From an uncultured virus (IMG/VR IMGVR_UViG_3300010163_001408) (lineage: Duplodnaviria; Heunggongvirae; Uroviricota; Caudoviricetes), in the IMG/VR virus record IMGVR_UViG_3300010163_001408: 64,000 bases of DNA; one strand, 5' to 3'. The position numbers and the translations under genes are program-made. Positions 335-23,102 of the stretch are shown piece by piece. The notes under the pieces were generated by a model, which saw only the letters and a program-made list of their open reading frames with translations, was not told the DNA's origin and searched no databases. How positions within the stretch are numbered: the stretch's first letter is position 1; each line of letters opens with the position of its first letter.

Positions 335-1024
335 ATGCAGGCAGTAATAACAGGTTGTAACAGAGGACTTGGTGCTGGTATTGCCAAGGTATTGTTACAA
401 AAGGGTTGGAATGTAACAGGGTTAAACAGAAGTAATACAGTTGATGAAGATTTGCTGCATCATCCTTTATATAAAGATTACATTGTGGATGTATCAAATA
501 AGGAGGATGTAGGATTATGTTGGATGCTTAATCCAATTGACTTACTTGTGTGCAATGCAGGCATAAGAAGATTTGGTAACATTGAAGACTTACCATCTGA
601 AGATTGGGAGAATTCAGTGAACATCAATCTTAACGGCGTATTCTATACAGTTAAGAAATTACTTCCTTTTGTCAAGAAGGTTAAAGGCGACATTATTATC
701 ATAGGATCTCACTCCGAAAAGTACACCTTTGAAAGTGGTGCAGCATATTGTGCAACCAAAGGTGCACTTAGGGAGTTTGCAGAGTGCCTCATGCAGGAAG
801 TAAGGTATGATGATGTAAGAGTATCATATCTGTCACTCGGTTCCATTAAGAATCGTGATCATGGCATTGACGAAGAATGGAAGCTCAAACCAGAAGAAGT
901 AGGAAGAGCAGTATATAGTATAGTGGAACTTCCTAAAAATATAATGATGCCTTATGTGGATATAAGACCAGCAAAGCCATTAAAGGACAGCAAATCTGGA
1001 ATTGAAAAACTGCAATATGTTTAA
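335..1024 (+). CDS. Short-chain dehydrogenase/reductase (candidate CofA/PenB-like reductase)
   Basis: TGCNRGLG Rossmann motif, CNAG, catalytic YCATK (YxxxK); Arg after beta2 (GLNRS) suggests NADPH. Confidence 0.9.
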   Translation: MQAVITGCNRGLGAGIAKVLLQKGWNVTGLNRSNTVDEDLLHHPLYKDYIVDVSNKEDVGLCWMLNPIDLLVCNAGIRRFGNIEDLPSEDWENSVNINLNGVFYTVKKLLPFVKKVKGDIIIIGSHSEKYTFESGAAYCATKGALREFAECLMQEVRYDDVRVSYLSLGSIKNRDHGIDEEWKLKPEEVGRAVYSIVELPKNIMMPYVDIRPAKPLKDSKSGIEKLQYV

Positions 1025-1048
1025 TTAATATTCATAAGGAATAAAAAG

Positions 1049-1255
1049 GTGATGAAAGTAGAAGATTTGATAAATCAATTGATGCCTTACAAAGATTTTG
1101 ATTTAAAAGTAAATGTGCATCTAAACGTAATGGAAGAGGAACTGCAAGAAAGAACATACGGTTTTTCTCATGATGATTTTGAAGGGGAATTAAAACTAGA
1201 TGATATTGGTCATTCTGATAAAGATGTATACATTGGAGTTGAAATAGTAAAATAA
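1049..1255 (+). CDS. Hypothetical small acidic protein
   Basis: ORF with RBS (AAGGA/AAGG) inside the operon. Confidence 0.6.
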   Translation: MMKVEDLINQLMPYKDFDLKVNVHLNVMEEELQERTYGFSHDDFEGELKLDDIGHSDKDVYIGVEIVK

Positions 1256-1271
1256 CAGGAGACAGTAGAAA

Positions 1272-2264
1272 ATGATCAAGAGCAATTATGCAATTAAACT
1301 GGACAAGAATATTGAACCAGTGCATACGTGTAAAGATGGTGATACCATAGTATTAGAGTCAGTGAATGCTTATGGAGAACACTTCTCTAATATGGGTGAA
1401 CTCATGGACTTAATTTCAGGTAAACATGGGGATAAACACCATCATCCTTTAACTGGACCAATTGACATTGAAGGTGCAGAAGAGGGCGACGTAATAGAAA
1501 TTGTAATAAAAGAGATAAACATTGATTTATCTGCTCAGGCATTATCAAAAAGTGCTGGTATATCTCCAATAGAAGTTGAATACTTCGGAGACAGGGCACC
1601 AATTTTAGCAAAATATAATAATACAACAAAAAATATCAAATACATGAACGGAATGCATATTCCATACAGACCCATGCTGGGCATGATTGGTTTGGCACCA
1701 GCAGAAGGTTTCATTAAAACAGGTCATGCAGGTAGAACAGGTGGAAACCTTGATATACCTTTCATTACAGAAGGTGTATCAGTATATATTCCAGTACAGA
1801 CATCTGGTGGAAAGCTGTTTGTAGGAGATGCTCATGCTGCTCAAGGATATGGGGAACTTGGTGGAATTGCTCTTGAGGCATCTGCAATAGTGACATTAGA
1901 AATAGCATTAAAAAAGCCAAGATATATGTTTAACAACATAGTAGTAATTGGTAAGGAACCAATGACAAATAGGCGAGCAATCGGTATTATAGGAGTAGCA
2001 AATTCATTTCAGAACCTAAATGAGGCTGTATGTGATGCATATAAGGGTGCAGTTGATATCATGAGTTACATGCTTCCTACAATCAATAAAAATTATGTAA
2101 GCAATGTAGTAACAGCAATTGGTCATTCAATAAACGGGCAGGCATTTTCTAAAACATCAGAATCAACGAGTATAGTAAATATACTTGAAGATGATATGAA
2201 GGTGCTTAAGAAGGATTCAGGATTTACACTATATTCTGAGTTTAATCAAGTAATGTTTAAATGA
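1272..2264 (+). CDS. Acetamidase/formamidase family protein
   Basis: HPLTGPIDIEGAEEGD, PMLGMIG, GGNLD, LFVGDAHAAQGYGE motifs. Confidence 0.85.
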   Translation: MIKSNYAIKLDKNIEPVHTCKDGDTIVLESVNAYGEHFSNMGELMDLISGKHGDKHHHPLTGPIDIEGAEEGDVIEIVIKEINIDLSAQALSKSAGISPIEVEYFGDRAPILAKYNNTTKNIKYMNGMHIPYRPMLGMIGLAPAEGFIKTGHAGRTGGNLDIPFITEGVSVYIPVQTSGGKLFVGDAHAAQGYGELGGIALEASAIVTLEIALKKPRYMFNNIVVIGKEPMTNRRAIGIIGVANSFQNLNEAVCDAYKGAVDIMSYMLPTINKNYVSNVVTAIGHSINGQAFSKTSESTSIVNILEDDMKVLKKDSGFTLYSEFNQVMFK

Positions 2265-2282
2265 AAATGTGGGAGATTATAT

Positions 2283-3026
2283 ATGAAAAATAATGATGTA
2301 GCCTTTTTTGTACAGTATAGATCAACAGGATCATCAAGCAGAGGTATACAGTCAGGCGGTGTGGTATTAACATTTGATGATATGTTTGACCAAGCATATG
2401 TAACCAAGCTTTTAAGAAACGGATATGCTGAAAGTAAACTGATGTATCAGGTAGGCAGAAACAGTCTACAGGATGTAAAAAGTATGAGAGTTGATGAATT
2501 TGAATCAATATTCAGGGGACACACAGATGATATTAAGTATCTGCTTGGATATAGTGATTTAACATCACCTTTCAGAAAAGAGATATTAACAGCATATGGA
2601 CCTGACTTGTATAGGGAAGTCAAAAAGAGTACAACAGTATACAAGAAGGGTGATATATTCATGGGGTCGGATAATATTAAATACATATATCTGGGTAATT
2701 TTGAATATGTCAATGTATACATTGATAAAGAGTTGGTAGCAGCATATAAAGGTCATTTTTACATGCCCATGTCAGCTGAATTATTAAAAAACACTAATAG
2801 AGAATTTGAAGTGGATACTATATTAGAATACTTCAAACGTGTTAGATTAAGCCCTAAGAAGTTTAGTGCAAACTTCTTGAAAACTAAAAAGAAGGCAGAA
2901 GTAAATAGTGTGATGAACATTGGACATAAAGGTTTAAACTCTGAAGGAGAGTTTAATGTAATATTAAATAGAGATTTCATTCATAATTATGAAAGAAAAC
3001 TTAAAATAGTATATAAGGAGGCATAA
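2283..3026 (+). CDS. Hypothetical protein
   Basis: 247-aa ORF with RBS GGGAG. Confidence 0.7.
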   Translation: MKNNDVAFFVQYRSTGSSSRGIQSGGVVLTFDDMFDQAYVTKLLRNGYAESKLMYQVGRNSLQDVKSMRVDEFESIFRGHTDDIKYLLGYSDLTSPFRKEILTAYGPDLYREVKKSTTVYKKGDIFMGSDNIKYIYLGNFEYVNVYIDKELVAAYKGHFYMPMSAELLKNTNREFEVDTILEYFKRVRLSPKKFSANFLKTKKKAEVNSVMNIGHKGLNSEGEFNVILNRDFIHNYERKLKIVYKEA

Positions 3027-3071
3027 TAGATATAAATAAGACATTTAAATAAACGAAAGGAGACAGTTAAA

Positions 3072-4265
3072 ATGGCAAATAGACCAATTATTAAAATTGG
3101 GGCAGGCAAAGGAAAGTTACTGGGTGTAACCAATCAATATCTGGAATACCTTGGACTTGAAACAATTGACCCTAAAAGCAGGGTGCTGACACACTACAGA
3201 GAAGCAGATAACTACATACTGAAGATCACGTTACTCAGGTGGGAGGATATCAAAGCATATGCAAATAGTTTTGATATGATTATCTTTGGTAGTGATCAGT
3301 GGCTTGAAAATGGTAAGAAATCAATGATTGCATTGAAACATTTTGAGCAGAAAGATTGCAGGTTGAGTTTACTGGTGCCAAAGAGTGAAGCTGATCAGCC
3401 ATTAAGATACTTCCTTGAGAGAAAGATTGCAACAGGATACCCAGAGTTAGCTAAAAGTTACATGGGAGTAAACGAAAACAACATTGTAAAAATGACAGGG
3501 AGTGTAGAAGCAGCAATTGGACTTGACTGGGCACAGAGTATTTTTGACATTGTAGAGAGCGGTGCAACTGCAAGAGAGAATGGACTTGTGGAATACAAGA
3601 CATTTGTAAGGTTTGGTGCTGTGTTGGCAACTTGTAAACCAGAGAAGATTCCTGTATTAAGAGACCTTGGACTTGTAGGGGGCTCGGTAGAAAGAAAGAT
3701 TATTGCATTTGACGGAGTGGATGGAAGTGGAAAGTCATCATTGGCTAAACACTTTGTACAAGAAGGACTTGGGGACAGCAATCCTATTGTGTTAATGTGC
3801 CCATACAGTGGATATGTGGGTACAACTGCAAGATCGTTGCTTGACAATGATAAATATATGGAATGGGCAATGCTGGTGGGTGAAAATCATTGGAGACCTA
3901 CACCTGGCGTAAACATGGTTTATGATAGATCAGTATTAACAAGCTTAACTGAATTGATCAAACATAATGCATTCAGAGGACAAATGCTAGATGCAGTTAA
4001 AGCATTTAGCCCATTACCTCAAGTAATATTTTGGTGCAATGCAGATATTAAAACCCTTACTCATAGGACAGAGTATAGAGGTGTGAAGGATAAGTACGAT
4101 ACTAAAGACTCATTAAAAGAATACAGCAAGCTATATAAAGAAGCAGTAGACTTTGTGAAGTCTGAATTTAACATTAAAGTAATTGAACTTGACACCAGTA
4201 AACCTATTGAGGAAACAATCAAGGAAATAAAGGAGGCACTAAAATGTATAGACTGGGAGAGGTAG
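3072..4265 (+). CDS. hisG: ATP phosphoribosyltransferase (short HisG) fused to a thymidylate-kinase-like NMP kinase
   Basis: N-terminal KGKL, RWEDI, KIATGYP, GSVEAA...IFDIVESGATARENGL (HisG signature); C-terminal IAFDGVDGSGKSS P-loop and YDRS (dTMP kinase family). Confidence 0.85.
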   Translation: MANRPIIKIGAGKGKLLGVTNQYLEYLGLETIDPKSRVLTHYREADNYILKITLLRWEDIKAYANSFDMIIFGSDQWLENGKKSMIALKHFEQKDCRLSLLVPKSEADQPLRYFLERKIATGYPELAKSYMGVNENNIVKMTGSVEAAIGLDWAQSIFDIVESGATARENGLVEYKTFVRFGAVLATCKPEKIPVLRDLGLVGGSVERKIIAFDGVDGSGKSSLAKHFVQEGLGDSNPIVLMCPYSGYVGTTARSLLDNDKYMEWAMLVGENHWRPTPGVNMVYDRSVLTSLTELIKHNAFRGQMLDAVKAFSPLPQVIFWCNADIKTLTHRTEYRGVKDKYDTKDSLKEYSKLYKEAVDFVKSEFNIKVIELDTSKPIEETIKEIKEALKCIDWER

Positions 4266-5002
4266 TAATTGAGGGTAAGTCCAAGAAGTTTTATGACCTT
4301 GGAGATGATAAGTTGTTTATGGTGTTTAAGCCACACTTAAGATCAGTAACTTCAAAGAGAGAAGGCAATATTGAAGGTACAGATACAGAAAGAATGATTG
4401 CAAACAACATGATTTTTAATATGTTAGAGTCAAAGGGAATCAAAACTCACAGAATGGAAAAAGAATTAAGAACCATTGATGGAATGACGGGCATGGTAGT
4501 AAAAAGAACAACTACAGTGCCAATTGAGTTCATCTGTAGATACAGGGCAGCAGGCAGTATTGTAAGGCTGTATCCTAGTATTGTAAAACCTGATATGAAA
4601 TTCAAGAGGCCATTATATAAATATGACCTGAAGCAGGATGTATCAGTAGCAGGTGTGGATGACCCTACATTAAATGAGAGTTACATTATAGGTTTAGAGT
4701 TAATGGAAGAGGATGACTTTGAAAAAGCAAGGGCATACCTTGGGGATATTGGATACCATATGCTAACAACCCTTGACACTGCTGGAATGACACTTGTAGA
4801 TATGAAGATGGAGTTTGGGCATACATCAAGTGGTGAGATTGTACTAATTGATGAGATCAGTCAGGATTGCATCAGAGCAAATGACACGGAAACATGGGAG
4901 CCCGTAACCAAGGATGCATACAGAAATATGAAGTCAGACAGTGAAGTTTTGGCTAAATACAAAGAGTTTAACCAGAGATTATCTAGGGTATTAAATAAGT
5001 AA
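4244..5002 (+). CDS. purC: SAICAR synthetase (PurC) homologue, candidate CofB/PenC-like
   Basis: EGKSKKFY, GIKTH, PIEFICRYRAAGS, DDP, LVDMKMEFG, LIDEISQDCIR, KDAYR motifs; overlaps the hisG fusion by 22 nt. Confidence 0.85.
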   Translation: MYRLGEVVIEGKSKKFYDLGDDKLFMVFKPHLRSVTSKREGNIEGTDTERMIANNMIFNMLESKGIKTHRMEKELRTIDGMTGMVVKRTTTVPIEFICRYRAAGSIVRLYPSIVKPDMKFKRPLYKYDLKQDVSVAGVDDPTLNESYIIGLELMEEDDFEKARAYLGDIGYHMLTTLDTAGMTLVDMKMEFGHTSSGEIVLIDEISQDCIRANDTETWEPVTKDAYRNMKSDSEVLAKYKEFNQRLSRVLNK

Positions 5003-5017
5003 ACATTTGAAATAGTT

Positions 5018-5055
5018 AATGGGGCGCATAAGATTAAGTATGCGCCCCATTTTTA
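5018..5055 (+). terminator. Rho-independent terminator
   Basis: AATGGGGCGCATA / TATGCGCCCCATT stem followed by a T run. Confidence 0.85.
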
Positions 5056-5107
5056 TACATTAGGATATTTAAAATAAATATTTTTAATAAAAGGAGAAGA
5101 CTTAAAC

Positions 5108-5551
5108 ATGAGTATAAGATCAGATGCATTTTTAGGATATTCAGTTGACATAGACAATAAAATGAAAACTTTGGAAGGTAATATTAGGGATGCTTTATTG
5201 TATGATGAAATTAATAAAATTACACCAGAAGATTTAAGAAATTTACATGAATTGAACATAATATCATATTGGAGTGTAAATAAAACATCGACAACAGATA
5301 AAATCATGATAGTATATGATGGAATGTCAGGTGAATATACTAAATTATTCTATATAATAGATTATAGACCAGATGTGGGTATATATGAACAAGGGGCAAT
5401 TGACTTTTTTGAAAGTGTGAAAACATACTTAAATAAGATAGAAACACCTGATAATGTAAAGAAGATGCTTAGTAATGCATATAGATTTATATTTAAAGAA
5501 GAACTGGATACAAATGAAATTCATCTTGAAGCATTTATACATTATACATGA
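5108..5551 (+). CDS. Hypothetical protein
   Basis: 147-aa ORF, RBS AAGGAG. Confidence 0.7.
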   Translation: MSIRSDAFLGYSVDIDNKMKTLEGNIRDALLYDEINKITPEDLRNLHELNIISYWSVNKTSTTDKIMIVYDGMSGEYTKLFYIIDYRPDVGIYEQGAIDFFESVKTYLNKIETPDNVKKMLSNAYRFIFKEELDTNEIHLEAFIHYT

Positions 5552-5604
5552 CACATAGAGTAAATTAAGAACATATCAAAATAGTTTGAAAGGGCATAAA
5601 AATA

Positions 5605-6471
5605 ATGAAAGACTATAATCAAGTAAAGAACAAAATAAATAAAAATATATTCATTGTAATATTTTATATAGCATTAACATTATCATTAGCATATATAACA
5701 TATCATATATTATTAGCAACATCTGGAAGAGAATCAGGACAAAAGAGTTTCTTAGGTTATACTTTTAGAATAGTTGTATCTGGCAGCATGGAACCTACAA
5801 TAAACACCAATGCATTAGCAATAATCAAGATATGTGATATAGACGACATAGAAAAGGACGATCTAGTTTGTTTCAGCTATGGTCAGGACATTATTCATAG
5901 AGTAATAAATAAAAACACTGATGGAACAGTCATATTAAATACTCAAGGTGATGCAAATGAGAGACCAGATGGCATAGAGGTAAACTCTGATATGGTCATT
6001 GGAAAAGTGGTAAAAGTGTTTAATCAAGTTGCACCATTCATTAGTAAATATTCAATATCACCTGGACATATAGATACAATAGCATTAACAAGAAATGTTG
6101 CAATATATTGTGTAATATTTGTTTTAGGAATATATTTAATAATACATATAATAAGGATACTAATAAACATGTTAGTATCAATTATACAAGATAAAAAAGA
6201 ATCAACAAAACAAGATACAATAGAGCAGTATATAATTGATTTAGATGAATTAATACTATATAGAGAGATATTAAAAGATTCATTAGAAAAACAAGTTAGT
6301 AATAATGCTGAACATAGATTTTATTATTTAAGCGGTAAAATTGCAAGAGCAAAAATAAACACAGAATGTAAGAGATTACATAAGAACATAAAAGAATACA
6401 AACATCAGATCAAAAGAGCAATGTTCATAAAAAATCTAGGTAAGATATTAGATGAAAAGACAAACAATTAA
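5605..6471 (+). CDS. sipW: Signal peptidase I, SipW/ER-type (S26), with C-terminal extension
   Basis: N-terminal TM, VVSGSMEP (catalytic Ser), IIHRV (His), TQGDAN..PD, second TM. Confidence 0.8.
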   Translation: MKDYNQVKNKINKNIFIVIFYIALTLSLAYITYHILLATSGRESGQKSFLGYTFRIVVSGSMEPTINTNALAIIKICDIDDIEKDDLVCFSYGQDIIHRVINKNTDGTVILNTQGDANERPDGIEVNSDMVIGKVVKVFNQVAPFISKYSISPGHIDTIALTRNVAIYCVIFVLGIYLIIHIIRILINMLVSIIQDKKESTKQDTIEQYIIDLDELILYREILKDSLEKQVSNNAEHRFYYLSGKIARAKINTECKRLHKNIKEYKHQIKRAMFIKNLGKILDEKTNN

Positions 6472-7558
6472 AAATAAAATGTTACATGCAAAAATGCATA
6501 ATAATCAAATAAAGAAAAAATTAGATTTAAAGGAACTTGGTTATATTATGACAGAGTTAACATGCATTAGTAAAAATAGAAATAACTTTGGTGTATATGG
6601 TAAATACATATTAAAAGATGCAAATGATAATATTATAAAAAAGTCAACAGTGGAACTGATAGATGCAATAAGAAATGGAGAAATAAATGTTGATAATTTG
6701 GAATTAACATCTAAAGGCACATTGAGAAATAAAAAGGATAAATTAAAAATAAAAGATGCAATAATTTTATTTGAGTATATAAAAGATAGAATAATATATG
6801 AGACACATAAGACAGTAGTATTCAAAGATAATACCAATATAGATTTACTAGAACAAAAAGCAAGAGCACTTTATGATAATATATACATTGATAAAATTGA
6901 TGAAGAATTAATTATAATTAAAACATTCGAGAAAATAATAGTAGCAACGCCCAAAAGCAAGTTTGTTATGCTAGATGCAGTTAACTTTTTTAAATGGTCC
7001 ACTTTAAGAGAAATAAACCTAATGAATGTAGATACATCATATTTAATAGATATGGGCTTTATGTTCTATTGTGCTAAAGCAAGTAAAATAAATATAAATA
7101 ATATAAATACTAGCAAAGTAGCATATATGGATCATATGTTTTTTGGATGTAATTTAATTGAGTTAACAATAGGAAATATTGATACAAGTAAAGTAACTGA
7201 TGCAAGTGAAATGTTTGCAGAAAGCAGCATGAACAAGTTAGATCTTAGCAGACTTAACCTAAATAACATTATTATAACAACTAGAATGTTTGAGCATACA
7301 AGAATTAAAGAAATAGACATATCAAATTTTGATCTAACACATACATATTACAATCAATATATGTTTAGAAATTGTAACATAGATATACTAAAAATAGGTA
7401 ACATTGAGATTGATAGTAATTTAATTGATAATTTTAAGATATTCCATAAAGCAAAAATAGGAACACTAATAATCAAAAGTGCACAGGAAGAAACCATACA
7501 ATACCTAAAGCAAAAATTGGGAAGTGATACAACAATAGTATGCAAGCACCAAAAGTAA
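6452..7558 (+). CDS. BspA/DUF285-like leucine-rich repeat protein
   Basis: Repeats of the type NxDTSKVxxMxxMF. Confidence 0.75.
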   Translation: MKRQTIKNKMLHAKMHNNQIKKKLDLKELGYIMTELTCISKNRNNFGVYGKYILKDANDNIIKKSTVELIDAIRNGEINVDNLELTSKGTLRNKKDKLKIKDAIILFEYIKDRIIYETHKTVVFKDNTNIDLLEQKARALYDNIYIDKIDEELIIIKTFEKIIVATPKSKFVMLDAVNFFKWSTLREINLMNVDTSYLIDMGFMFYCAKASKININNINTSKVAYMDHMFFGCNLIELTIGNIDTSKVTDASEMFAESSMNKLDLSRLNLNNIIITTRMFEHTRIKEIDISNFDLTHTYYNQYMFRNCNIDILKIGNIEIDSNLIDNFKIFHKAKIGTLIIKSAQEETIQYLKQKLGSDTTIVCKHQK

Positions 7559-7571
7559 TAAGGTATAGGAG

Positions 7572-8432
7572 ATGTTAAAGATGGAAAGAATAGATGATAG
7601 GGTAATAATAGATCAAGAAACTATAAGCAATATAGCATGTAAGAAACACCTGACATTTAAGAGTAATAAAGACTTTAAAATTATGGAAAATAAAGCAGCT
7701 GTATTAGGTGGAGATACAAGATTTGATTTAATATCACCTGATTTAGGTGCATTAAAAATGAATGATAATATTATATTAATGACAAATAAGAGCAGGATAG
7801 AAGTTTATGATGGATATGATTTATTTAATACTCCACGTATGCATAGTTTTAGTTCAATAAACTTAACTGGATTAGATACTAGCAATATGAAATGTGCAAT
7901 TGAAATGTTTAGTAACATAAAAAATGAAATAATAGGATTGAATAATTTGGATACACATAATGTAGAATGTATGAGAGGAATGTTTTCTAGCATTAAAAGT
8001 GATAAAATAAATTTATCAAACTTTGATGTGTCCAAAGTTATGGATATGCGTTATATGTTTATAAGGTCAACTATAACTGAATTAGACATAAGCAATTTTA
8101 ATATAAATACTTCATCAAAACTAAATTTCATGTTTTATAAAGCACAGATAGGCACTTTAAAGTTGTTTGATATAAAATTGCATATGAATATATCAGATTT
8201 ATTTTCATATACAAACATAGAAACTTTAATATTGAATAAAATAGATATAGAAGAAGACCAAGAGAACTTAAAAGCAGTCCTTGAGGGTGCAAATATAGGT
8301 AAAATAGTCCTACTAGACACAAGTCAGAAAACATTAGAGGGCTTGTACAAAATGTTAATGTCACCTATAAGAGAGGACGGAATAATGCAGACTATTGGTA
8401 ATTTAGATGAAATACTACAACTATATGATTAA
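7572..8432 (+). CDS. BspA/DUF285-like LRR protein (paralogue)
   Basis: LDTSNMK..MF, LDTHNV..M..MF, FDVSKV.DM..MF repeats. Confidence 0.75.
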   Translation: MLKMERIDDRVIIDQETISNIACKKHLTFKSNKDFKIMENKAAVLGGDTRFDLISPDLGALKMNDNIILMTNKSRIEVYDGYDLFNTPRMHSFSSINLTGLDTSNMKCAIEMFSNIKNEIIGLNNLDTHNVECMRGMFSSIKSDKINLSNFDVSKVMDMRYMFIRSTITELDISNFNINTSSKLNFMFYKAQIGTLKLFDIKLHMNISDLFSYTNIETLILNKIDIEEDQENLKAVLEGANIGKIVLLDTSQKTLEGLYKMLMSPIREDGIMQTIGNLDEILQLYD

Positions 8433-8446
8433 AGGGAGACTAAGAA

Positions 8447-9303
8447 ATGGAAAGTAAGGCAGTAATAGACCGTAATATTATAAAAAGTATATTATGCAAA
8501 AAGTATTTAACATTTAAAACAAATGTTGATTTTGATATAATGGCAAATAAAGCACATGCATTAGGTAATGGAATCGAGTTTAAAATCATAAGAGATGACA
8601 TAGGTACATTAGAAATAAATGATAAAATCATTTTAATGACAAACAAAGAAAAATTAATAGCATATGGAAAAGCATTATTTATTAATTGCAGCTCTAAAAA
8701 CTTTTTTTTAAATCTATAGACCTAACTAATTTGGATACTAGTGAAATGACTAGTGCAAATAACATGTTCGGATTTAATACTTACAACATAAATGAAACAA
8801 TGAACATAGATAAATTAGACACACATAATGTAGTAGATATGGAAAAAATGTTTCAATATACAAAATATGATAAGCTAAGTTTATTAGAATTTAATACAAG
8901 CAAGGTCACTAATATGAATGACATGTTCTTTGCATCAAAAATACGAGAACTAGATATTAGTAAATTTAATATAAATAGTATACAAACATTAAAGAATATG
9001 TTTTTTATTTCAACTATAGATACTTTGAAATTATTTGATATACCGTCAGGAATAAATGTTTCAAATATGTTGGCATATTCAAATATAGATAAGCTAATAT
9101 TAGGTAAGATGAACATAGGTCATGATAATCAAGAATTAAAAAGTGTATTTGCAGGAGCAAATATAAACAAAATAATACTAACAGATAAAAGCAAAGATAC
9201 AATAGGTAGTTTACATAAGATGCTAGAATCGACTATAAGAGAAATGGAAGACAAACCAATAATAGGTAATTTTAGCCAAATATCAACACTATGTGGCATT
9301 TAG
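8447..9303 (+). pseudogene. BspA/DUF285-like LRR paralogue frameshifted at a T8 tract
   Basis: ORFs 8447-8719 and 8731-9303 align to the N- and C-parts of 7572-8432; T9 instead of T8 at 8702-8709 restores FKSIDLTNLDTS (cf. FSSINLTGLDTS). Confidence 0.8.
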
Positions 9304-9321: not shown

Positions 9322-10452
9322 ATGAAAGATAAGTATGCAGACATATCTAATTATTACAAGCAAGCACATTTTAATAAACTGGTAAACTACAGAAATAGTA
9401 TAAGAAAAAATCCAGAACTGAAAACACTATTCATAGAAATGACAATAACATGTAACCAGCATTGCAGACATTGTGGAAGTCGATGTGGTGACATTAAGGA
9501 AAAATCGGGGTTGACAGATAATGAAATTTTTGAATGTTTAAAAGAACTTTCTGTAGACATTGCAAGAGATAACAGACCTTTACCATTCTTAGCCATAACA
9601 GGTGGTGAGCCTTTATTAAGAAAGACATTACCAGATTTAATGAAGAAAATACATGATGACCTAGGATATAAATGGGGAATGACAAGTAATGGGCTATTAG
9701 CAACACCTGAAATGTGTCATAGACTAAAAGAAGCTGGCATGTATTCAATAGGGATTAGCCTGGATGGATTAGAAGAAACACATGATTGGTTTAGACAGTC
9801 AAAGGGAAGTTACCAGAAAACACTAGAAAACATTAAGAATTTAGTAAATGAGGGCTTTGGAAATGTAATGGTAACTACAGTAGTTCACAAAAGGAACATA
9901 GGAGAACTTGACAAAATTAAAGAAGTAGTCAAGGGATTAAAAGTGGACACATGGAGAATAATGGGAGTAGACCCTATAGGCAGAACACTGGAAAACAAGG
10001 ATATAATGTTGGACAATAACAGTGACTACAAATACATTATAGATTATATAGTAAACATGAGGGAAAATGACAAAGATATAGATGTAATATATGGATGCAA
10101 TTATTATTTAGGTTTAGACTATGAAAGAAAGGTGAGGCCATGGTATTACTTATGTGGTGCTGGCATAAAGGTAGCAAGCATACAATATAACGGAGACATA
10201 AGTGCTTGCCTAGATATACAAAGAGATGAAAGATTGACCTTTGGAAACATAAGAAAAGATAACCTTTATGACATTTGGAAAAATAAGTTTGAAATATTCA
10301 GAACAGAAAAATCACTAACAAGCAGTAAATGCAAAGATTGTAAAGACAGACTAAATTGTGATGGTAATGGTTGGCATACATGGGATTTTGATAGCAACGA
10401 GCCTAAAATATGTATGAAAGAATTAATAGACTTAAGGGGTGATAACATATGA
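9322..10452 (+). CDS. Radical SAM/SPASM peptide- or protein-modifying enzyme
   Basis: CNQHCRHC (CxxxCxxC), ITGGEPLLR, WGMTSNG, SLDG; SPASM Cys in CGAG...GDISAC...CKDC...C. Confidence 0.9.
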   Translation: MKDKYADISNYYKQAHFNKLVNYRNSIRKNPELKTLFIEMTITCNQHCRHCGSRCGDIKEKSGLTDNEIFECLKELSVDIARDNRPLPFLAITGGEPLLRKTLPDLMKKIHDDLGYKWGMTSNGLLATPEMCHRLKEAGMYSIGISLDGLEETHDWFRQSKGSYQKTLENIKNLVNEGFGNVMVTTVVHKRNIGELDKIKEVVKGLKVDTWRIMGVDPIGRTLENKDIMLDNNSDYKYIIDYIVNMRENDKDIDVIYGCNYYLGLDYERKVRPWYYLCGAGIKVASIQYNGDISACLDIQRDERLTFGNIRKDNLYDIWKNKFEIFRTEKSLTSSKCKDCKDRLNCDGNGWHTWDFDSNEPKICMKELIDLRGDNI

Positions 10453-10928
10453 AACGAAAAATAATAGTAGCTACATTAGGAATTATAATCACAGCAGCCA
10501 CAGTACTGGCAGTTGGCAGTTTAATATCAGATTTTAACCCATTATATAATGAGCCACTATGTTTATATGGTATGATACCAGAGCAAGACGAAGATACACC
10601 AGCAAAAACAAATAGCAACAGTAGGAATTCAAGCAGGAATTTAAACAGTAAAACAAAATTACCAATAGAAATTAAAAAGGCTGCTGATAAAAAAGAAACA
10701 TCCAAGCCATCAGAAGTATATAATCCAGAACGGGATATAGAAATAGATATGTATGGTGTGATAGTACCACGTGATGACGATGATGATCAATCAATAGATA
10801 ACTATGACCCTTATAAAGATATTGTGGTAACCGATTATGGAATAGCAATATTTCCAGATGATGAAGTAAACATTGAATATGATCCATTAAGTGACATACA
10901 AATAGCTGAATATGGATCAATGGAATAA
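10449..10928 (+). CDS. Exported or membrane-anchored acidic protein with four XYG repeats (putative radical SAM substrate)
   Basis: N-terminal basic+hydrophobic signal; LCLYGM, IDMYGV, VTDYGI, IAEYGS, preceded by YNEP/YNP/YDP; overlaps the rSAM stop. Confidence 0.7.
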   Translation: MKRKIIVATLGIIITAATVLAVGSLISDFNPLYNEPLCLYGMIPEQDEDTPAKTNSNSRNSSRNLNSKTKLPIEIKKAADKKETSKPSEVYNPERDIEIDMYGVIVPRDDDDDQSIDNYDPYKDIVVTDYGIAIFPDDEVNIEYDPLSDIQIAEYGSME

Positions 10929-10939
10929 GGAGAAATAAT

Positions 10940-11134
10940 ATGGATGACAAGCAAAAATTAGAAAACATTTTTGGTGATGAACCAACAAACTTTGAGTCTA
11001 ATAACACTATAATAGATGACTATGACCCAGAGGATGATATAGTATTTGATGAATATGAATGTGTAGAAATTGGATATTATATTGATGAACCACCTATAAT
11101 AGATGATAATTCAATGCAAGATTACTATATCTAA
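10940..11134 (+). CDS. Small acidic protein related to the XYG-repeat protein
   Basis: YDPEDDIVFDEYE resembles the YDP..DI...(D/E)YG repeats upstream; RBS AGGAG. Confidence 0.55.
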   Translation: MDDKQKLENIFGDEPTNFESNNTIIDDYDPEDDIVFDEYECVEIGYYIDEPPIIDDNSMQDYYI

Positions 11135-11176
11135 CAGTGACTTAAATATTAGATACACATGCAGGAGTTAATAATC

Positions 11177-11842
11177 ATGGACAAGACACTTAGTGAACTA
11201 TGTAAACAAAATAACATAGAGTATATTAAAGCTATAAAATATAAAAGAAAACATCCAGAATTAACATATGAACAAGTTATTAATTATTATTTAACACATA
11301 ATTTAAATAAAGATTCATTCATGAAACTGTGCAAACAATATGGAATAAAATATGGTACTGCCAATGCTTACAAACAGCATCATCCGGAATTAAGTAACGA
11401 GGAAATAATTAAACATTATATTACACAAAAGAAACCAAAAGAAGAAACATTTAGTAATATGTGCAGGAAACATGGAGTAAATATAGCAACAGCATTTAGT
11501 TATAAGAATTTACATCCTGAATTAAGTAATGAACAAATAATAAATCATTATTTAACATCAAAAACTAATGAATTAAAAGAATTGAGTAAAAAATATAACA
11601 TAGAGTATAAGAGATTACGTGTATACAGAAGTGAGCATCCAAACTTAAGTAATAAAGAAATAATAAATCATTTTTTAGCAAAACAAGAATACCTTAGTAA
11701 GTTATGTGAACAATATGGAATAAAATATAATACTGCCAATGCTTACAAACAGCATCATCCGAAATTAAGTAATGAGGAAATAATTAAACATTATATACCA
11801 AATAGTTTCATCAACAGTCAGGGAGAATTGATTGTACTATAA
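11177..11842 (+). CDS. Tandem HTH-like repeat protein (5 repeats plus cap)
   Basis: LC..Y.I.Y.....YK..HPEL...II..Y repeats; ends IPNSFINSQGELIVL; start chosen from RBS GGAG at 11164. Confidence 0.8.
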   Translation: MDKTLSELCKQNNIEYIKAIKYKRKHPELTYEQVINYYLTHNLNKDSFMKLCKQYGIKYGTANAYKQHHPELSNEEIIKHYITQKKPKEETFSNMCRKHGVNIATAFSYKNLHPELSNEQIINHYLTSKTNELKELSKKYNIEYKRLRVYRSEHPNLSNKEIINHFLAKQEYLSKLCEQYGIKYNTANAYKQHHPKLSNEEIIKHYIPNSFINSQGELIVL

Positions 11843-11855
11843 AGGGGTAAAAAAT

Positions 11856-12347
11856 ATGAATATAAAAATTTATACAGATGGAGCCTGTAGTGGAAACCCT
11901 GGACCTGGTGGATATGGGTGTATACTAAGTACAGTTTTAAATAATGGACAATTGTATGAAGTAAAACACAGTGGCGGATGTAGGATGACTACCAATAATA
12001 GAATGGAAATGATAGCAGTAATTCAAGGTTTACTGGCATTAAATGGTTATGGACATAATATAGAAGTAATAACAGATAGCAAATATGTATGTGATGCATT
12101 CAATGAGGGTTGGGTGTATAAATGGCATGCGAAAGGTTGGCAAAAGAAAGGTGGACTTGCAAATAGGGATTTATGGAGTACATTATTTAATTTAGTAACC
12201 ATGCAAAACAGTGTAAAGTTTACATGGATAAGAGGACATAATGGACACCCATACAACGAGGAATGTGATAGAATAGCAGTCTGCGCAAGACAAGATACAG
12301 CACATCTTGAAACAGATACAGGATATGAAAGATTTGGAAAAATATAA
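11856..12347 (+). CDS. rnhA: Ribonuclease HI
   Basis: IYTDGACSGNPGPGG, TTNNRME, TDSKYV, NRDLW, WIRGHNGHPYNEECD. Confidence 0.95.
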   Translation: MNIKIYTDGACSGNPGPGGYGCILSTVLNNGQLYEVKHSGGCRMTTNNRMEMIAVIQGLLALNGYGHNIEVITDSKYVCDAFNEGWVYKWHAKGWQKKGGLANRDLWSTLFNLVTMQNSVKFTWIRGHNGHPYNEECDRIAVCARQDTAHLETDTGYERFGKI

Positions 12348-12373: not shown

Positions 12374-12426
12374 CATTTTATATCAAACAGTTTTATCAAT
12401 AGTCAAGGAGAATTAATATCATATGA
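12374..12426 (+). repeat. Orphan copy of the repeat-family C-terminal cap sequence
   Basis: CATTTTATATCAAACAGTTTTATCAATAGTCAAGGAGAATTAATATCATATGA with no upstream repeat gene; supplies the RBS for ATG 12423. Confidence 0.8.
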
Positions 12427-13235
12427 CATTAAAAGATTTATGCAAGCAGCATAATTTAAAATGGCCTACAGTATATGCATATAAAAATTCACACCCTGAA
12501 TTAACTGATGAACAAATTATAAATTATTATTTATATCCAAAACCACTTACAATTAAAGAATTATGTATGCAACAAGGAATTAAATATGAAAACTTTTTTC
12601 ATTATAGAAGAATGCATAAGGAATTATCATCATTAACAATTAATGAAATAATAGAACACTACTTAGCATCTAAGAAAGTTACATTTAAAGGTTTGTGTGA
12701 TAAAAATGGTATAAATTATAAGCTTGCATCATCATTTAAATTCAAGCATAAAGAATTAACTAATGAACAAATAATTCAATATTATATAAATAAGAGATCA
12801 ACAAAAACAATATTGGATTTGTGTAAAGAAAATAACATAGAACCAAACAAAGTATACGTATTTAAAAGATTACACATTAATGAAGAATTATCTAATGAAC
12901 AATTATTAAACAGTTATATGCAGCATGCTGAAAATAGGTATAAATCAAAACAATTTTTAGATTTATGCAGAAATAATAATATAGATACTAATTCAGCATC
13001 ACAATATAAAAGAAAGCATCCTGAACTGTCAGAGGAACAAGTAATAGAATATTTTTTATTAAAAAATTTAAGCCCACAGAAAATGTTAAGTAATATGTGT
13101 AAAAAGTATAAATTACGTTATAGTACAGTAAGGAAATACAAGGAGAGGCATAACAGTTTAAGTAATGAACAAGCTATTCAGCATTTTATACCAAATAGTT
13201 TCATCAATAGTCAAGGAGAATTAATAGTTATATAA
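12423..13235 (+). CDS. Tandem HTH-like repeat protein (6 repeats plus cap)
   Basis: Same repeat; ends IPNSFINSQGELIVI. Confidence 0.85.
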   Translation: MTLKDLCKQHNLKWPTVYAYKNSHPELTDEQIINYYLYPKPLTIKELCMQQGIKYENFFHYRRMHKELSSLTINEIIEHYLASKKVTFKGLCDKNGINYKLASSFKFKHKELTNEQIIQYYINKRSTKTILDLCKENNIEPNKVYVFKRLHINEELSNEQLLNSYMQHAENRYKSKQFLDLCRNNNIDTNSASQYKRKHPELSEEQVIEYFLLKNLSPQKMLSNMCKKYKLRYSTVRKYKERHNSLSNEQAIQHFIPNSFINSQGELIVI

Positions 13236-15104: not shown

Positions 15105-15126
15105 TCAGGTGACATCAGGTGACATA

Positions 15127-15972
15127 ATGAATAATAATAATTATACACACTCACAAAAAGACAACATACAGAAAGAACTAATAGAAAAATTATATAAGAT
15201 GTATGCAATCAAAAATAGAAGTGATTACACTGGAAGTATATTAAAATGTGAGTGTATAATTAATAATGAAAGAGGTATATTTAAGGAACGCTATAGTATG
15301 AGAAGCAAAGACCATATAATGGAACAAATAGTCTTTGAACTATCACAACTATTAGGAGTAAATTGTTGCAAAGCATCATGCAGAAAAGTGAATGACATAT
15401 ATGGATCATTTTCAAGATTTGAGGTTGCAGACATAAATAATGTAGTACCATTAAGTGAATATTTGAATGCATCAGAATTACATGCAGATGACTTATTAGA
15501 AACAATAATAAACAAATCAAGAGGAATCATAAATAATATAGTAGTTAATTTATATCAATATATAATATTTGACTACATTACAGGACAACATGATAGGCAT
15601 TTAGAAAACATATCCATATATAAAAATATGAATAATAGAACAATAGTAATGTATCCATTATATGATAACGGTTTATGTTGTTTTTCAATATATAACAATG
15701 AAGATGCTATAGAGAGGTTACAAAAACGTTTTTATCCATCAAGAATGGGTTCAAGTGATGAAATAATGGATGCAATAATAAAGTACAGACACATTATTTA
15801 TCCAGACAATTTAATTAACATAATTCAGTACAACAATGTAAATAAAGATATAATCATGAATATAATAAATAGGTCAGATAAATATAAACAAATGAAACCA
15901 GATAGAAAAGAAGCAATAGCAGAGTTTATATTAAGTCAAATCAAAGATATACATAATATAAATAGGGGATAA
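15127..15972 (+). CDS. HipA/CtkA-like protein kinase
   Basis: FDYITGQHDRHLENI catalytic loop and YPLYDNG; ATG 15127 preferred over GTG 15109. Confidence 0.75.
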   Translation: MNNNNYTHSQKDNIQKELIEKLYKMYAIKNRSDYTGSILKCECIINNERGIFKERYSMRSKDHIMEQIVFELSQLLGVNCCKASCRKVNDIYGSFSRFEVADINNVVPLSEYLNASELHADDLLETIINKSRGIINNIVVNLYQYIIFDYITGQHDRHLENISIYKNMNNRTIVMYPLYDNGLCCFSIYNNEDAIERLQKRFYPSRMGSSDEIMDAIIKYRHIIYPDNLINIIQYNNVNKDIIMNIINRSDKYKQMKPDRKEAIAEFILSQIKDIHNINRG

Positions 15973-18366: not shown

Positions 18367-19836
18367 ATGGTAGAATCATTCAAGCAGATGTGCGAACAAA
18401 ATGGAATAAATTATAACACAGCATTAAAATATAGAAAGAAGCATACAGAATTATCAGATAATCAAGTAATTGATCACTATTTAGCATTACAAATAGTTAA
18501 AAAAGAAGAGTCATTTAGCTCATTATGTAAAAAATACAATATTAATTATAGTGCCGCTAGATATTACAAAAGGAAACATCCAGAATTAAGTAATCAAGAA
18601 ATAATTGATCACTATTTAGCATTGCAAACAGTTAAAAAAGAAGAGACACTTAAGTCATTATGTAAACAACATAATATAAATTATTCTACATTTATTAATT
18701 ATAAACGTAGCCATCCAGAATTAAGTAATCAACAAGTAATTGATCATTATTTAGCACCAAAAGAAGAATCGCTTTGGTCCTTATGTAAACGATACAATAC
18801 TAATCATTATGCTGCCTATTATTATAAAAGGAAATATCCAGAATTAAGTAATCAACAAATAATTAATCACTATTTAGCATTACAAACAGTTAAAAAAGAA
18901 GGATCACTTATGTCATTATGCAAACAATACAATATTAATTATGACATGGCATATAGTTATAAATGTAGGCATCCAAAATTAAGTAATCAAGAAATAATTA
19001 ATCACTATTTAGCATTGCAAACAGTTAAAAAAGAAGAGACACTTAAGTCATTATGTAAACAACATAATATAAATTATAATATAGCAAAAAAATATAAGAA
19101 TAGACATACAGAATTAAATGATCAAGAAGTAATTAATCACTATTTAGCATTACAAACAATTAAAAAAGAAGAGTCATTTAGCTCATTATGTAAGAAATAC
19201 AATATTAACTATGGTAATGCATGGAGTTATAAAAAGAGACATCTAGAACTAAATGATCAGGAAATAATCAATCACTATTTAGTATTACAAAAAGAAGGGG
19301 CACTTAAATCATTATGTAGACAATACGATATAAACTACATTACAGTTCTCCATTATAAAAATAAACACCCAGAATTAAGTGATCAGGAAATAATAAAATA
19401 TTACTCAACAAAACGTTACTCAGCAAAACAAGAGTCTACATTTAGAAGTTTATGTAGGCAATATAACCTTAATTATGGTACAACAATATCATACAGAAAT
19501 AAACATCCAGAACTAAGTGATCAACAAGTAATTGACTATTATTTAGTACCAAAAGAAGAATCACTTCTGTCATTATGCAAACAATACAATGTTAATTATA
19601 GTACTGCACGTTTGTATAAAAATAACCATTTAGAATTAAGCAATCAACAAGTAATTGATTATTATTTAGTACCAAAAGAAGAATCACTTATGTCATTATG
19701 CAAACAATACAATATTAAGTATAGTACTGCAAATTGGTATAAAAATAATCATTCAGAATTAAGTAACAAACAAGTTATTCAACATTTTATACCAAACAGT
19801 TTCATTAATAGTCAAGGAGAACTAATAGTAATATGA
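18367..19836 (+). CDS. Tandem HTH-like repeat protein (11 repeats plus cap)
   Basis: Eleven 41-46 aa units with near-identical scaffolds; ends IPNSFINSQGELIVI. Confidence 0.9.
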   Translation: MVESFKQMCEQNGINYNTALKYRKKHTELSDNQVIDHYLALQIVKKEESFSSLCKKYNINYSAARYYKRKHPELSNQEIIDHYLALQTVKKEETLKSLCKQHNINYSTFINYKRSHPELSNQQVIDHYLAPKEESLWSLCKRYNTNHYAAYYYKRKYPELSNQQIINHYLALQTVKKEGSLMSLCKQYNINYDMAYSYKCRHPKLSNQEIINHYLALQTVKKEETLKSLCKQHNINYNIAKKYKNRHTELNDQEVINHYLALQTIKKEESFSSLCKKYNINYGNAWSYKKRHLELNDQEIINHYLVLQKEGALKSLCRQYDINYITVLHYKNKHPELSDQEIIKYYSTKRYSAKQESTFRSLCRQYNLNYGTTISYRNKHPELSDQQVIDYYLVPKEESLLSLCKQYNVNYSTARLYKNNHLELSNQQVIDYYLVPKEESLMSLCKQYNIKYSTANWYKNNHSELSNKQVIQHFIPNSFINSQGELIVI

Positions 19837-20369: not shown

Positions 20370-20894
20370 ATGGAAGTCAAAAAGAATAAATCCTTTAAAG
20401 AAATATGCAAACAGCATTCAGTAAGCTATGCATCAGCATTACATTATAGAAAAAGACATCCAGAATTATCAGATAATCAAGTAATTGATCATTTTTTAAA
20501 TAAAACAAACACATATTTTACAGAATTGTGCAAACAAAATAATATATCATACTCAGCAGCTTATGCTTATAAGCGTAGGCACCCAAAAGTAAGCAACAAG
20601 AATATAATGAATAAATTTTTAGACCCTGCAAGAATGCTTACAAGATTATGCAAGCAGCATAATATACCATATAAAATGGTTTATAATTATGGATACAGAC
20701 ATCCAGAATTATCAAATGAGCAATTAATAGAATACTTTAAGCATAATCAGTACCCTAGGATTCCATTTAAAACATTATGCAAACAAAACAATGTAAATTA
20801 TACAAATGCATATGCTTATAAACGAAATCATCCTGAATTAACAGATGAACAAATAATTAAAAGATATATAGATAAGAGAGAACAGGAGCATTAA
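20370..20894 (+). CDS. HTH-like repeat protein (4 repeats, no cap)
   Basis: Same repeat; RBS AGGAGG. Confidence 0.85.
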   Translation: MEVKKNKSFKEICKQHSVSYASALHYRKRHPELSDNQVIDHFLNKTNTYFTELCKQNNISYSAAYAYKRRHPKVSNKNIMNKFLDPARMLTRLCKQHNIPYKMVYNYGYRHPELSNEQLIEYFKHNQYPRIPFKTLCKQNNVNYTNAYAYKRNHPELTDEQIIKRYIDKREQEH

Positions 20895-22682: not shown

Positions 22683-23102
22683 ATGGAAGAATCAAATAAT
22701 TTAGCTGAATTATGTAGACAACATAACATAAATTATAATGCAGCAATAAAATATAAAAATAGGCATCCAGAACTAAGTAACAAAGAAATAGTAAATCGTT
22801 ATTTAACAATCGAATCACAGTCATTTCGAAATTTTTGTGAACAACACAATTTAAATTATACAACAGCTTTGGATTTTAAACATAGACACCCAGAATTAAG
22901 CAATCAACAAATACAAATAGTAGAACACTACTTAACGCTGAAATCACAGTCATTTAAAAGTCTTTGTAAACAATTCAATATAAACTATGTTAAAGCACTA
23001 GCTTTTAAACATAGACACTTAGAATTAAACAATCAACAAATAATTCAGTACTATATACCAAACAGTTTTATCAATAGTCAAGGAGAACTAATAGTAGTAT
23101 GA
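22683..23102 (+). CDS. HTH-like repeat protein (3 repeats plus cap)
   Basis: Same repeat and cap. Confidence 0.85.
   Translation: MEESNNLAELCRQHNINYNAAIKYKNRHPELSNKEIVNRYLTIESQSFRNFCEQHNLNYTTALDFKHRHPELSNQQIQIVEHYLTLKSQSFKSLCKQFNINYVKALAFKHRHLELNNQQIIQYYIPNSFINSQGELIVV

Follow-up and report, generated by a model that had tools for sequence, protein, structure and literature searches.

A short-form HisG–kinase fusion and its conserved gene cassette on a phage-like element point to a possible diazepine nucleotide pathway

We analysed a stretch of 64,000 nucleotides (hereafter the window) from an uncultured virus assigned to Caudoviricetes (IMG/VR record IMGVR_UViG_3300010163_001408), focusing on the plus-strand gene at positions 3072–4265. 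Its open reading frame (ORF) starts with ATG, has a GGAG Shine-Dalgarno sequence 9 nt 5' of this codon, and encodes 397 amino acids followed by a stop codon. The product is a short-form HisG (ATP phosphoribosyltransferase) catalytic core joined to a P-loop kinase of the thymidylate kinase (TMK) fold. The gene belongs to a tightly spaced cassette, all on the plus strand, that also encodes a short-chain dehydrogenase/reductase (SDR), an FmdA/AmdA-family amidohydrolase-like protein, and a protein resembling phosphoribosylaminoimidazole-succinocarboxamide (SAICAR) synthetase, or PurC.

The N-terminal half of the fusion (residues 1–204; positions 3072–3683) was assigned to short-form HisG by structure superposition and Foldseek. 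The Pfam HisG model (PF01634) matches residues 65–187 with an E-value of 9.6e-23 (81.3 bits against a cut-off of 25.5), and the NCBIfam model TIGR00070 (hisG) scores the protein at 88.8 bits, above its cut-off of 75.75. Nine ordinary HisG proteins in the same scan as the fusion, whose HisG scored 81 bits, reached 147–189 bits. The Pfam and NCBIfam scans detected no HisG_C regulatory domain (PF08029) in the fusion protein, and the closest solved relatives of its HisG half are short-form enzymes (5m8h, 1z7m, and 2vd2). Modelled by AlphaFold2 from 42 family members, with a predicted local distance difference test (pLDDT) score of 91.1 and a predicted template modelling (pTM) score of 0.85, the protein splits cleanly into HisG (residues 5–204) and a TMK-type kinase (residues 205–397). 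Residues 5–204 superpose on the HisG core 5ub9 with a VIA-align Z of 18.1 and a root-mean-square deviation (rmsd) of 3.1 over 195 aligned residues, and the Foldseek match of the HisG half to 1z7m has an E-value of 2.5e-14. A preliminary description of this DNA had proposed a short-form HisG fused to a P-loop nucleoside monophosphate (NMP) kinase with FDGVDGSGKS and YDRS motifs and lacking the C-terminal regulatory domain; the ORF, the domain matches, the model, and the motifs confirm both points, residues 205–397 being kinase. Without a histidine-binding domain, the HisG domain would therefore not be feedback-inhibited by histidine.

In the 42-sequence alignment of the family, the invariant HisG residues are K13, G14, R56, G73, D75, E79, C96, E146, D159, and G164, and D68 is nearly invariant. 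When four cassette HisG domains were compared with six stand-alone proteins of short HisG length, 15 columns were invariant (G14, R37, D59, D68, G73, E79, C96, T121, Y123, G143, E146, D159, G164, N170, and L172). The motif DIVESGATA (residues 159–167; positions 3546–3572) contains the invariant D159 and G164; we take it to be the loop that binds phosphoribosyl pyrophosphate (PRPP), and the roles of the other HisG residues are likewise assumed.

The C-terminal half (residues 205–397; positions 3684–4262) was assigned to the TMK fold by VIA-align and by its match to PHROG 761, thymidylate kinase (1.3e-13). Its best structural neighbours are all thymidylate kinases, namely 2wwf (Z 17.9, rmsd 3.0, 184 aligned residues), 5x7j (Z 17.9), 2plr (17.4), 2v54 (17.3), and 4dwj (17.2), followed by the adenylate kinase 6ln3 (15.4) and the deoxyadenosine kinase 8puu (15.0). 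The P-loop AFDGVDGSGKS (residues 212–222; positions 3705–3737) conforms to the pattern DG.D.[SC]GK[ST], which is present in all 42 aligned members, and the P-loop of the window's kinase half, IIAFDGVDGSGKS, is close to that of Aquifex TMK. The invariant positions comprise D214, G215, D217, G220, K221, and S222 of the P-loop together with Y284, D285, R286, R332, and D343. YDRS (residues 284–287; positions 3921–3932) lies opposite CDRY in a canonical TMK and is the equivalent of the TMK DR motif, and the LID arginines are of the TMK type. Catalytic motifs are retained in both domains, which look functional, and the TMK-type fold, P-loop, DR motif, and LID arginines make a nucleoside 5'-monophosphate the likely acceptor.

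On the acceptor side the kinase departs from TMK. The Pfam Thymidylate_kin model (PF02223) matches residues 213–386 at 26.3 bits (E-value 6.9e-6), just below its cut-off of 27, and some relatives exceed this cut-off (44.3 bits for the protein of related locus L001). The dTMP kinase model TIGR00041 gives 28 bits only against a cut-off of 83.25. In an hhalign comparison (probability 96.3) with the canonical TMK of G001, a metagenome-assembled genome (MAG) that carries a related cassette, PYSGYVG lies opposite KEPTQDVFG and GENHW opposite TANRA. These replacements (PYSGY.G for KEPT..FG and ..NHW for ..NRA) are nearly invariant in the family, which argues that the acceptor pocket has been remodelled; the thymine-binding residues of TMK are assumed here. 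On these grounds the kinase half appears not to be a plain dTMP kinase.

The cassette comprises five modules, two of which are joined in the fusion. A look for sequencing runs covering positions 335–5002 listed none, and none with RNA. The SDR gene (positions 335–1024; 229 amino acids) matches Pfam adh_short at 1.2e-33 and reaches no NCBIfam equivalog cut-off; its product is a candidate 8-keto reductase with a role like that of PenB or CofA in the pentostatin and coformycin pathways. The FmdA-like gene (positions 1272–2264; 330 amino acids) matches Pfam FmdA_AmdA at 8.3e-31 and the PDB entry 2ii1, titled "acetamidase", at 1.3e-30. The PurC-like gene (positions 4244–5002; 252 amino acids) shares 22 nt with the fusion gene and possesses an AAGGAGG site of its own. 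Its product matches Pfam SAICAR_synt at 1.9e-36 and PDB PurC 2yzl at 8e-27, scores 101.8 bits with TIGR00081 (purC), below the cut-off of 189.9, and is a candidate diazepine ring-closing enzyme with a role like that of PenC or CofB. Three further ORFs stand outside the conserved cassette and have no tblastn match in the related loci described below: one of 68 amino acids (positions 1049–1255) with no Pfam match, an orphan of 247 amino acids between the FmdA-like gene and the fusion (positions 2283–3026) with no Pfam, NCBIfam, or PHROG match and no usable match in the Atlas, and one of 147 amino acids 3' of the cassette that resembles hypothetical proteins only, mostly viral, and is unrelated to the 148-residue ORF at the same position in locus L007. 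A promoter-like site (TTGACA, 17 nt, TATTAT, with TG; 11 of 12 matches) is located upstream of the SDR gene at positions 261–289; because such sites are not in excess (30 in 6 kb against a mean of 31.5 in shuffled sequences), it is a lead only.

The same cassette occurs elsewhere. We compared the window with seven related loci, four on contigs of uncultured gut Clostridia MAGs (L001–L004) and three on metagenome contigs (L006–L008), two of which are truncated, L003 after HisG and L008 within the SDR gene. As determined by tblastn and Pfam, the order SDR, FmdA-like, HisG, kinase, PurC-like is the same in the window and in all seven; the SDR comes first in each (48–62% identity to the window SDR), the FmdA-like module is present in each, and the PurC-like gene follows the kinase in all six that extend that far. 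HisG–kinase proteins are encoded in the window, L006, and L007, and FmdA–HisG–kinase proteins in L001, L002, L004, and L008. A metagenome scan returned 12 loci, three with the cassette and nine with the kinase domain only, at 24–41% identity and without cassette genes nearby. The MAG cassettes sit beside housekeeping genes (coaD, prfA-like, and suf). A cytidylyltransferase-like gene upstream of them was considered as a pathway member and rejected, as it is CoaD above its cut-off.

Several loci carry additional enzymes. Two genes downstream of the PurC-like gene, L007 encodes a HisA–HisI fusion (PF00977 plus PF01502) that scores 139 bits against the PRA-CH equivalog cut-off of 126; this one relative speaks directly for a branch from the histidine pathway. 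The L007 segment 10566–13463 contains this HisA–HisI without HisE, followed by a protein of 163 amino acids with no assigned family, an NrtR-like protein, and a Ham1 inosine triphosphatase (ITPase). A divergent adenylosuccinate-synthetase (PurA-like) paralogue adjoins the cassette in L001 (9942–11333) and L006 (533–1822); these proteins reach 252 and 241 bits, short of the 395.55 needed for purA, and are not PurZ, and G001 additionally has a canonical PurA of 438 bits. In L004, a UMPH-1-type 5'-nucleotidase adjoins the cassette.

The fused architecture is widespread among its relatives. A word-indexed search among proteins of near length with the fusion protein found 182 proteins at E ≤ 1e-3; PF01634 is present in 120 of the 120 listed, and PF02223 also in 115 of these. 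A search among longer proteins found 21, all of them FmdA_AmdA + HisG + Thymidylate_kin, and two triple fusions of HisG, kinase, and PurC-like domains were identified (P0026 and P0036). Because the architecture recurs across at least 115 metagenomic proteins with its motifs kept, the gene at 3072–4265 is neither a chance ORF nor the product of a frameshift. When 1.84 billion representatives were searched exhaustively with HMMER, 613 matched at E ≤ 1e-3 and only 11 at E ≤ 1e-30; these belong to the fusion family or are fragments of its members. Within the top 150 matches, there are no relatives of the kinase half outside the fusion family, and no fungal proteins appear among the matches listed in the near-length and HMMER searches. 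One family member is publicly annotated simply as "ATP phosphoribosyltransferase". Distant larger proteins with a C-terminal HisG proved to be ordinary HisZ–HisG, HisG–aminotransferase, or long-form HisG and were rejected as relatives of the fusion. In P0128 (326 amino acids), the HisG-like N-terminal half no longer matches the HisG model, and the kinase half retains its motifs.

A quick maximum-likelihood tree of 55 rows was computed from 42 HisG–kinase proteins, the two PurC-fused forms (cut to 400 residues), and 11 FmdA-fused forms (last 395 residues), with support from the SH-like approximate likelihood ratio test (SH-aLRT) only and a careful search unfinished. In this tree, the window's protein is sister to P0002 (support 96), ten of the 11 FmdA-fused forms fall in one clade, and the two PurC-fused forms are not sisters. 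Such repeated and different fusions suggest that all four enzyme modules (FmdA-like, HisG, kinase, and PurC-like) serve one pathway.

To place the cassette in its metabolic setting, we searched three carrier MAGs (G001–G003; 1.4–1.9 Mb, completeness unknown) as a whole. In all three, the fusion is the sole HisG match and the cassette gene the sole SAICAR_synt match. PRA-CH, Histidinol_dh, and PurH are missing from all three, as is any His_biosynth match above cut-off; PRA-PH gave one weak match, and PurE was found in one MAG, in a copy with two stop codons. The PurH and PurE results, together with the TIGR00081 score, indicate that the SAICAR-synthetase homologue of the cassette is not a housekeeping PurC, and retention of the cassette in MAGs without histidine or de novo purine genes argues that it is not a housekeeping unit. 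Moreover, a separate and better-scoring TMK is present in G001 (86.6 bits against 30.7 for the fused kinase) and G003 (57.3 against 42), where the fused kinase is thus not the housekeeping dTMP kinase; G002 showed no separate TMK. The preliminary description had expected an enzyme other than a plain dTMP kinase, and this holds in view of the TMK cut-offs, the remodelled acceptor motifs, and the separate TMK in two of the three MAGs.

In the coformycin scheme reportedly put forward by Ren et al. in 2020, the pathway branches from histidine biosynthesis after HisG, HisE/I, and HisA. The SAICAR-synthetase homologue CofB is said to close the diazepine ring to give 8-ketocoformycin 5'-phosphate, which the SDR CofA reportedly reduces before a phosphatase finishes the product. 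The available text of PMC12648386 describes the pentostatin core PenA/PenC/PenB as a HisG homologue, a SAICAR-synthetase homologue, and an SDR, with PenA coupling PRPP to dATP; the same core recurs in the related clusters for coformycin, adechlorin, and pyrazomycin in the parts available of that paper and of PMC13055916. In the window, the SDR and SAICAR-synthetase-like genes flank the fusion and thus complete the PenA/PenB/PenC trio as presented in the available text of PMC12648386, so that the neighbourhood fits the coformycin/pentostatin-type pathway that the preliminary description had invoked. The conserved FmdA-like module was overlooked in that description, which thus stands in part: for the fusion, the short HisG, the non-dTMP kinase, and the pathway context. 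We put the chances at about even that the cassette encodes the pentostatin/coformycin (1,3-diazepine nucleotide) pathway in a form specific to Firmicutes and phages, and that a nucleoside monophosphate of this pathway is the substrate of the kinase.

The observations on which this reading draws are the domain identities, the conserved motifs, the conservation of the cassette, the fusions, and the missing histidine and purine pathways in the carriers; the chemical steps, the kinase acceptor, and the biological target are what we infer from them. The HisG domain would couple PRPP to N1 of an adenine nucleotide. The six-membered adenine ring would then be opened and the ribosyl arm rearranged, either by host HisI/HisA or by the FmdA-like hydrolase. 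The PurC-like enzyme might next close a seven-membered ring using ATP, yielding an 8-keto intermediate for the SDR to reduce, and the kinase would phosphorylate a nucleoside 5'-monophosphate of the pathway, most likely the finished diazepine nucleotide. An FmdA-type amidase could also hydrolyse a ring-opened carboxamide to the carboxylate and so provide the PurC-like enzyme with its usual acyl substrate. As a di- or triphosphate, the product would be retained inside the cell, where it would act as a transition-state mimic for adenine-nucleotide deaminases.

Three considerations make the finished diazepine monophosphate the favoured, still putative, acceptor of the kinase: a dedicated kinase is sensible only for a substrate that the NMP kinases of the cell refuse, two lineages join the kinase and the PurC-like enzyme in one protein, and the actinomycete clusters list no kinase in the available text of PMC12648386 and PMC13055916. 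The acceptor cannot be named from the sequence, however, and a supply of precursor from dAMP to dADP fits the same data.

This and other points weigh against the diazepine pathway reading. Its link to the Pen and Cof clusters and to the fungal protein Cns3 (described below) consists of shared family membership and gene order, not of direct sequence comparison. The FmdA-like module is universal here and absent from the Pen, Cof, and Cns pathways, and the product may therefore differ. The route from phosphoribosyl-ATP (PR-ATP) to the PurC-like step is not visibly complete, as HisI and HisA are lacking in the window and the three MAGs; tblastn found no HisE, HisI, or HisA homologue in the 64-kb window, nor any match to the HisA–HisI protein of L007, a negative that applies to incomplete MAGs and to a window outside which lie 108 kb of the 172,141-bp contig. 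Incomplete assemblies may explain the gap, the rest of the contig or the host may supply the enzymes, or the FmdA-like hydrolase may do part of their work. Divergence is more rapid in the kinase half, where pairwise identity averages 0.49, than in HisG, where it averages 0.64. In addition, the fusion family is almost absent from recognised viruses: of 102 pattern matches in a scan of IMG/VR with the family alignment, one locus remained, with a weak match to the kinase only, and 50,697 GenBank phage records gave six weak HisG-only matches and no full-length fusion. Finally, the 64-kb window contains no capsid, portal, or large terminase gene. A search of GenBank phages with the PurC-like protein returned just ordinary cyanophage-type PurC at about 31% identity.

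The strongest rival, which we regard as doubtful, retains a pentostatin-like start and leads to a different purine-derived nucleotide. Here the N1-phosphoribosyl adenine nucleotide formed by HisG would be the direct substrate of the FmdA-like enzyme, through ring opening, hydrolysis of the 6-imino group, or conversion of a carboxamide to a carboxylate that gives the PurC-like enzyme an acyl substrate resembling carboxyaminoimidazole ribonucleotide (CAIR); a product other than coformycin would then be completed by the SDR and the kinase, joined in some loci by the PurA-like paralogue. This would account for the FmdA-like module in all eight loci (the window and the seven related ones) and its fusion to HisG in 21 proteins, for the lack of HisI, HisA, and HisD in the carrier MAGs, and for the PurA-like paralogue beside the cassette in L001 and L006. 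In contrast, SDR, PurC-like, and HisG together are exactly the PenB/PenC/PenA set of the available text of PMC12648386, the HisA–HisI in the L007 cluster points to the canonical phosphoribosylformimino (ProFAR) and phosphoribulosylformimino (PRFAR) aminoimidazole carboxamide ribonucleotide intermediates, and no chemistry is known for such a product.

An improbable variant, in our estimate, has the kinase feed the diazepine pathway rather than complete it: dAMP or AMP would be converted to the diphosphate and then phosphoribosylated by the fused HisG, ending in a 2'-deoxy (pentostatin-type) monophosphate or nucleoside. PenA is described with dATP as the PRPP acceptor in the available text of PMC12648386, which favours this variant. 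HisG and kinase are moreover united in one polypeptide across the family, as expected for consecutive steps, short-form HisG binds ADP in place of ATP (the title of PDB 6fua reads "in complex with PRPP and ADP"), a 5'-nucleotidase adjoins the cassette in L004, and dAMP would be plentiful when a phage degrades host DNA. However, the bacterial chromosomal carriers do not degrade DNA, and a dedicated, strongly remodelled acceptor site is not obviously needed for AMP or dAMP. Adenylate kinase already converts both in cells.

The preliminary description had offered, as its own alternative, a modified deoxynucleoside triphosphate (dNTP) that the element places in its DNA to escape restriction. The kinase could raise a modified deoxynucleoside monophosphate towards the triphosphate, and the element has nucleotide-metabolism genes of its own, including dCMP deaminase (63455–63913) and RNase H (11832–12347). 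Deoxycoformycin is reportedly phosphorylated and enters cellular DNA in human cells, a point that our literature search did not return. Against this, the same cassette is found in the chromosomes of small-genome Clostridia MAGs by housekeeping genes, none of the eight loci links it to a DNA polymerase, a dNTP-clearing enzyme, or a base-transferase, no glycosylase is linked to it either, and a diazepine base with a tetrahedral C8 would have no obvious pairing partner. We therefore set the modified-dNTP explanation aside as very unlikely. Ordinary metabolism, with a chance fusion between a histidine-pathway HisG and a housekeeping dTMP kinase beside a housekeeping PurC, is hardly credible, for the public name of one family member and the TIGR00070 score above cut-off stand against the missing histidine and purine pathways, the separate TMK in two of three MAGs, TMK and purC scores below their equivalog cut-offs, the 81-bit HisG match against 147–189 bits in ordinary enzymes, and a strictly conserved cassette with independent fusions.

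If the diazepine nucleotide pathway is retained as the preferred reading, adenine-nucleotide deaminases are candidate targets. RADAR, Cad1, and DeaR are presented as known phage defences and toxins of this kind in the available text of PMC13733733, where coformycin 5'-phosphate is also described as an inhibitor of AMP deaminase. On the phage-like element, the product would shield the ATP/dATP pool, or adenosine salvage, against host deaminases, and an element that makes a transition-state mimic at the nucleotide level would plausibly have a counter-measure to such enzymes. Our literature search found no paper tying coformycin or pentostatin synthesis to phages. The boldest form of this idea seems to us unlikely: a gut-Firmicute phage would carry a complete counter-defence pathway from ATP/dATP and PRPP to a coformycin or deoxycoformycin 5'-di- or triphosphate that blocks RADAR RdrB and Cad1-type deaminases, the TMK-derived kinase would keep the inhibitor at the nucleotide level, the FmdA-type hydrolase would replace or supplement ring opening by the histidine pathway, and the Clostridia cassette would serve self-protection against deaminase toxins.

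A separate observation was made in the carrier MAG G002, whose contig 39 (L022, positions 4337–6865) encodes a protein of 842 amino acids with an adenosine-deaminase domain that weakly matches the deaminase half of the CARF-ADA defence model (8.2e-10). Its neighbours weakly match RT-protease and Cas10-type models, and a defence island in this cassette-carrying MAG is possible. The deaminase protein is a lead, not evidence, for the idea that deaminases are the target.

The window as a whole has a low guanine-plus-cytosine (GC) content (0.25–0.36), coding on one strand, and many orphan genes, and a scan for tRNA genes in the window found none. Between 36614 and 44480 lie three paralogous genes for Hef-like homing endonucleases (PHROG 3339/559; 549, 539, and 657 amino acids), interleaved with a T2SSE-type ATPase gene (38276–39784) and a gene for 336 amino acids with no assigned function. 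Relatives of the Hef-like genes occur in 444 phage records, many of jumbo phages, and a RecJ-like exonuclease gives weak matches in large Firmicute phages. A 5'-3' exonuclease and a PC4-like protein are encoded alongside the RNase H and dCMP deaminase noted above. These genes and the 147-residue ORF suggest a phage. A ParA-type ATPase (35718–36614) and an actin-like (Alp7A/MreB-like) segregation protein (51684–53015) suggest plasmid-like maintenance, and together with the T2SSE ATPase they point to a plasmid. The element may thus be a large phage or a phage-plasmid of a low-GC gut bacterial host.

Downstream of the cassette, an array of DUF285/BspA-type leucine-rich-repeat paralogues (6452–7558, 7572–8432, and 8731–9303, with a related N-terminal piece at 8447–8719) ends in a pair that looks like one gene split in two. 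It is followed by a radical SAM + SPASM enzyme (9322–10452) and two small acidic proteins (10449–10928 and 10940–11134) with repeated D/E-rich "Y(G/D)..I" motifs; enzyme and acidic proteins may form a peptide-maturation pair. A tandem helix-turn-helix (HTH) repeat family (11159–11842, 12423–13235, 18367–19836, 20370–20894, 21097–21633, 23099–24346, and 24357–25034) matches HTH_Tnp_1, HTH_psq, and HTH_28, and its "terminase small subunit" PHROG matches cover the HTH only. A HipA_C-like kinase (15109–15972) matches the candidate defence model PDC-M03A (1.5e-14), and an AbiEii-like nucleotidyltransferase is located at 49868–50464.

To our knowledge, pentostatin and coformycin have been described only as nucleoside antibiotics that actinomycetes and fungi secrete. 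To the HisG/PurC-like/SDR set of that pathway, the conserved cassette adds an apparently dedicated NMP kinase and a new amidohydrolase module. If the proposed pathway is correct, diazepine chemistry would extend to the gut microbiome and to viruses, a testable hypothesis would be at hand for how a mobile element neutralises adenine-nucleotide deaminase defences, and new enzymes would become available for making phosphorylated deaminase inhibitors.

Among known systems, the thymidylate kinases are the best structural match of residues 205–397 (Z 17.2–17.9) and share the TMK-type P-loop, DR motif, and LID arginines, whereas the fused kinase falls below the Pfam and NCBIfam cut-offs and its acceptor-side motifs are replaced. 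Similarly, the HisGS subunit of the HisGS–HisZ holoenzyme (Lactococcus lactis 1z7m and Psychrobacter arcticus 5m8h) has the same fold, length, and conserved catalytic residues and equally lacks a C-terminal histidine-binding domain. However, the C-terminus of the fusion is a kinase instead of a pairing with a HisRS-like regulator, and ordinary HisG proteins score roughly twice as high with the Pfam HisG model. No histidine operon or HisZ is in view around the fusion, HisZ itself not having been searched for.

The Pen/Cof/adechlorin core of Actinomycetota consists of the same three clustered families as the cassette (PenC = CofB/AdeA; PenB = CofA), as far as the available text of the cited papers goes, and in both settings a HisG homologue is used outside histidine biosynthesis. 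In contrast, in the cassette HisG is always fused to a TMK-fold kinase, the FmdA/AmdA-like amidohydrolase is obligatory, and no phosphatase or exporter is conserved; instead of actinomycetes, gut Clostridia MAGs and a phage-like element carry the cassette, and the carriers examined are without HisI/HisA. Cns3 of Cordyceps militaris, according to the available text of PMC8719641, likewise joins a nucleoside/nucleotide kinase and a HisG domain in one protein, and its HisG domain is needed for pentostatin. Cns3 has its kinase at the N-terminus and the fusion at the C-terminus, and the kinase of Cns3 is proposed to make 3'-AMP for cordycepin (PMC8719641, same text). Cns3 is eukaryotic, whereas the fusion comes from bacterial MAGs and a phage-like element, and the two kinases are likened by description. 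Within the available account of Cns3, a kinase–HisG fusion in a pentostatin context thus has a precedent.

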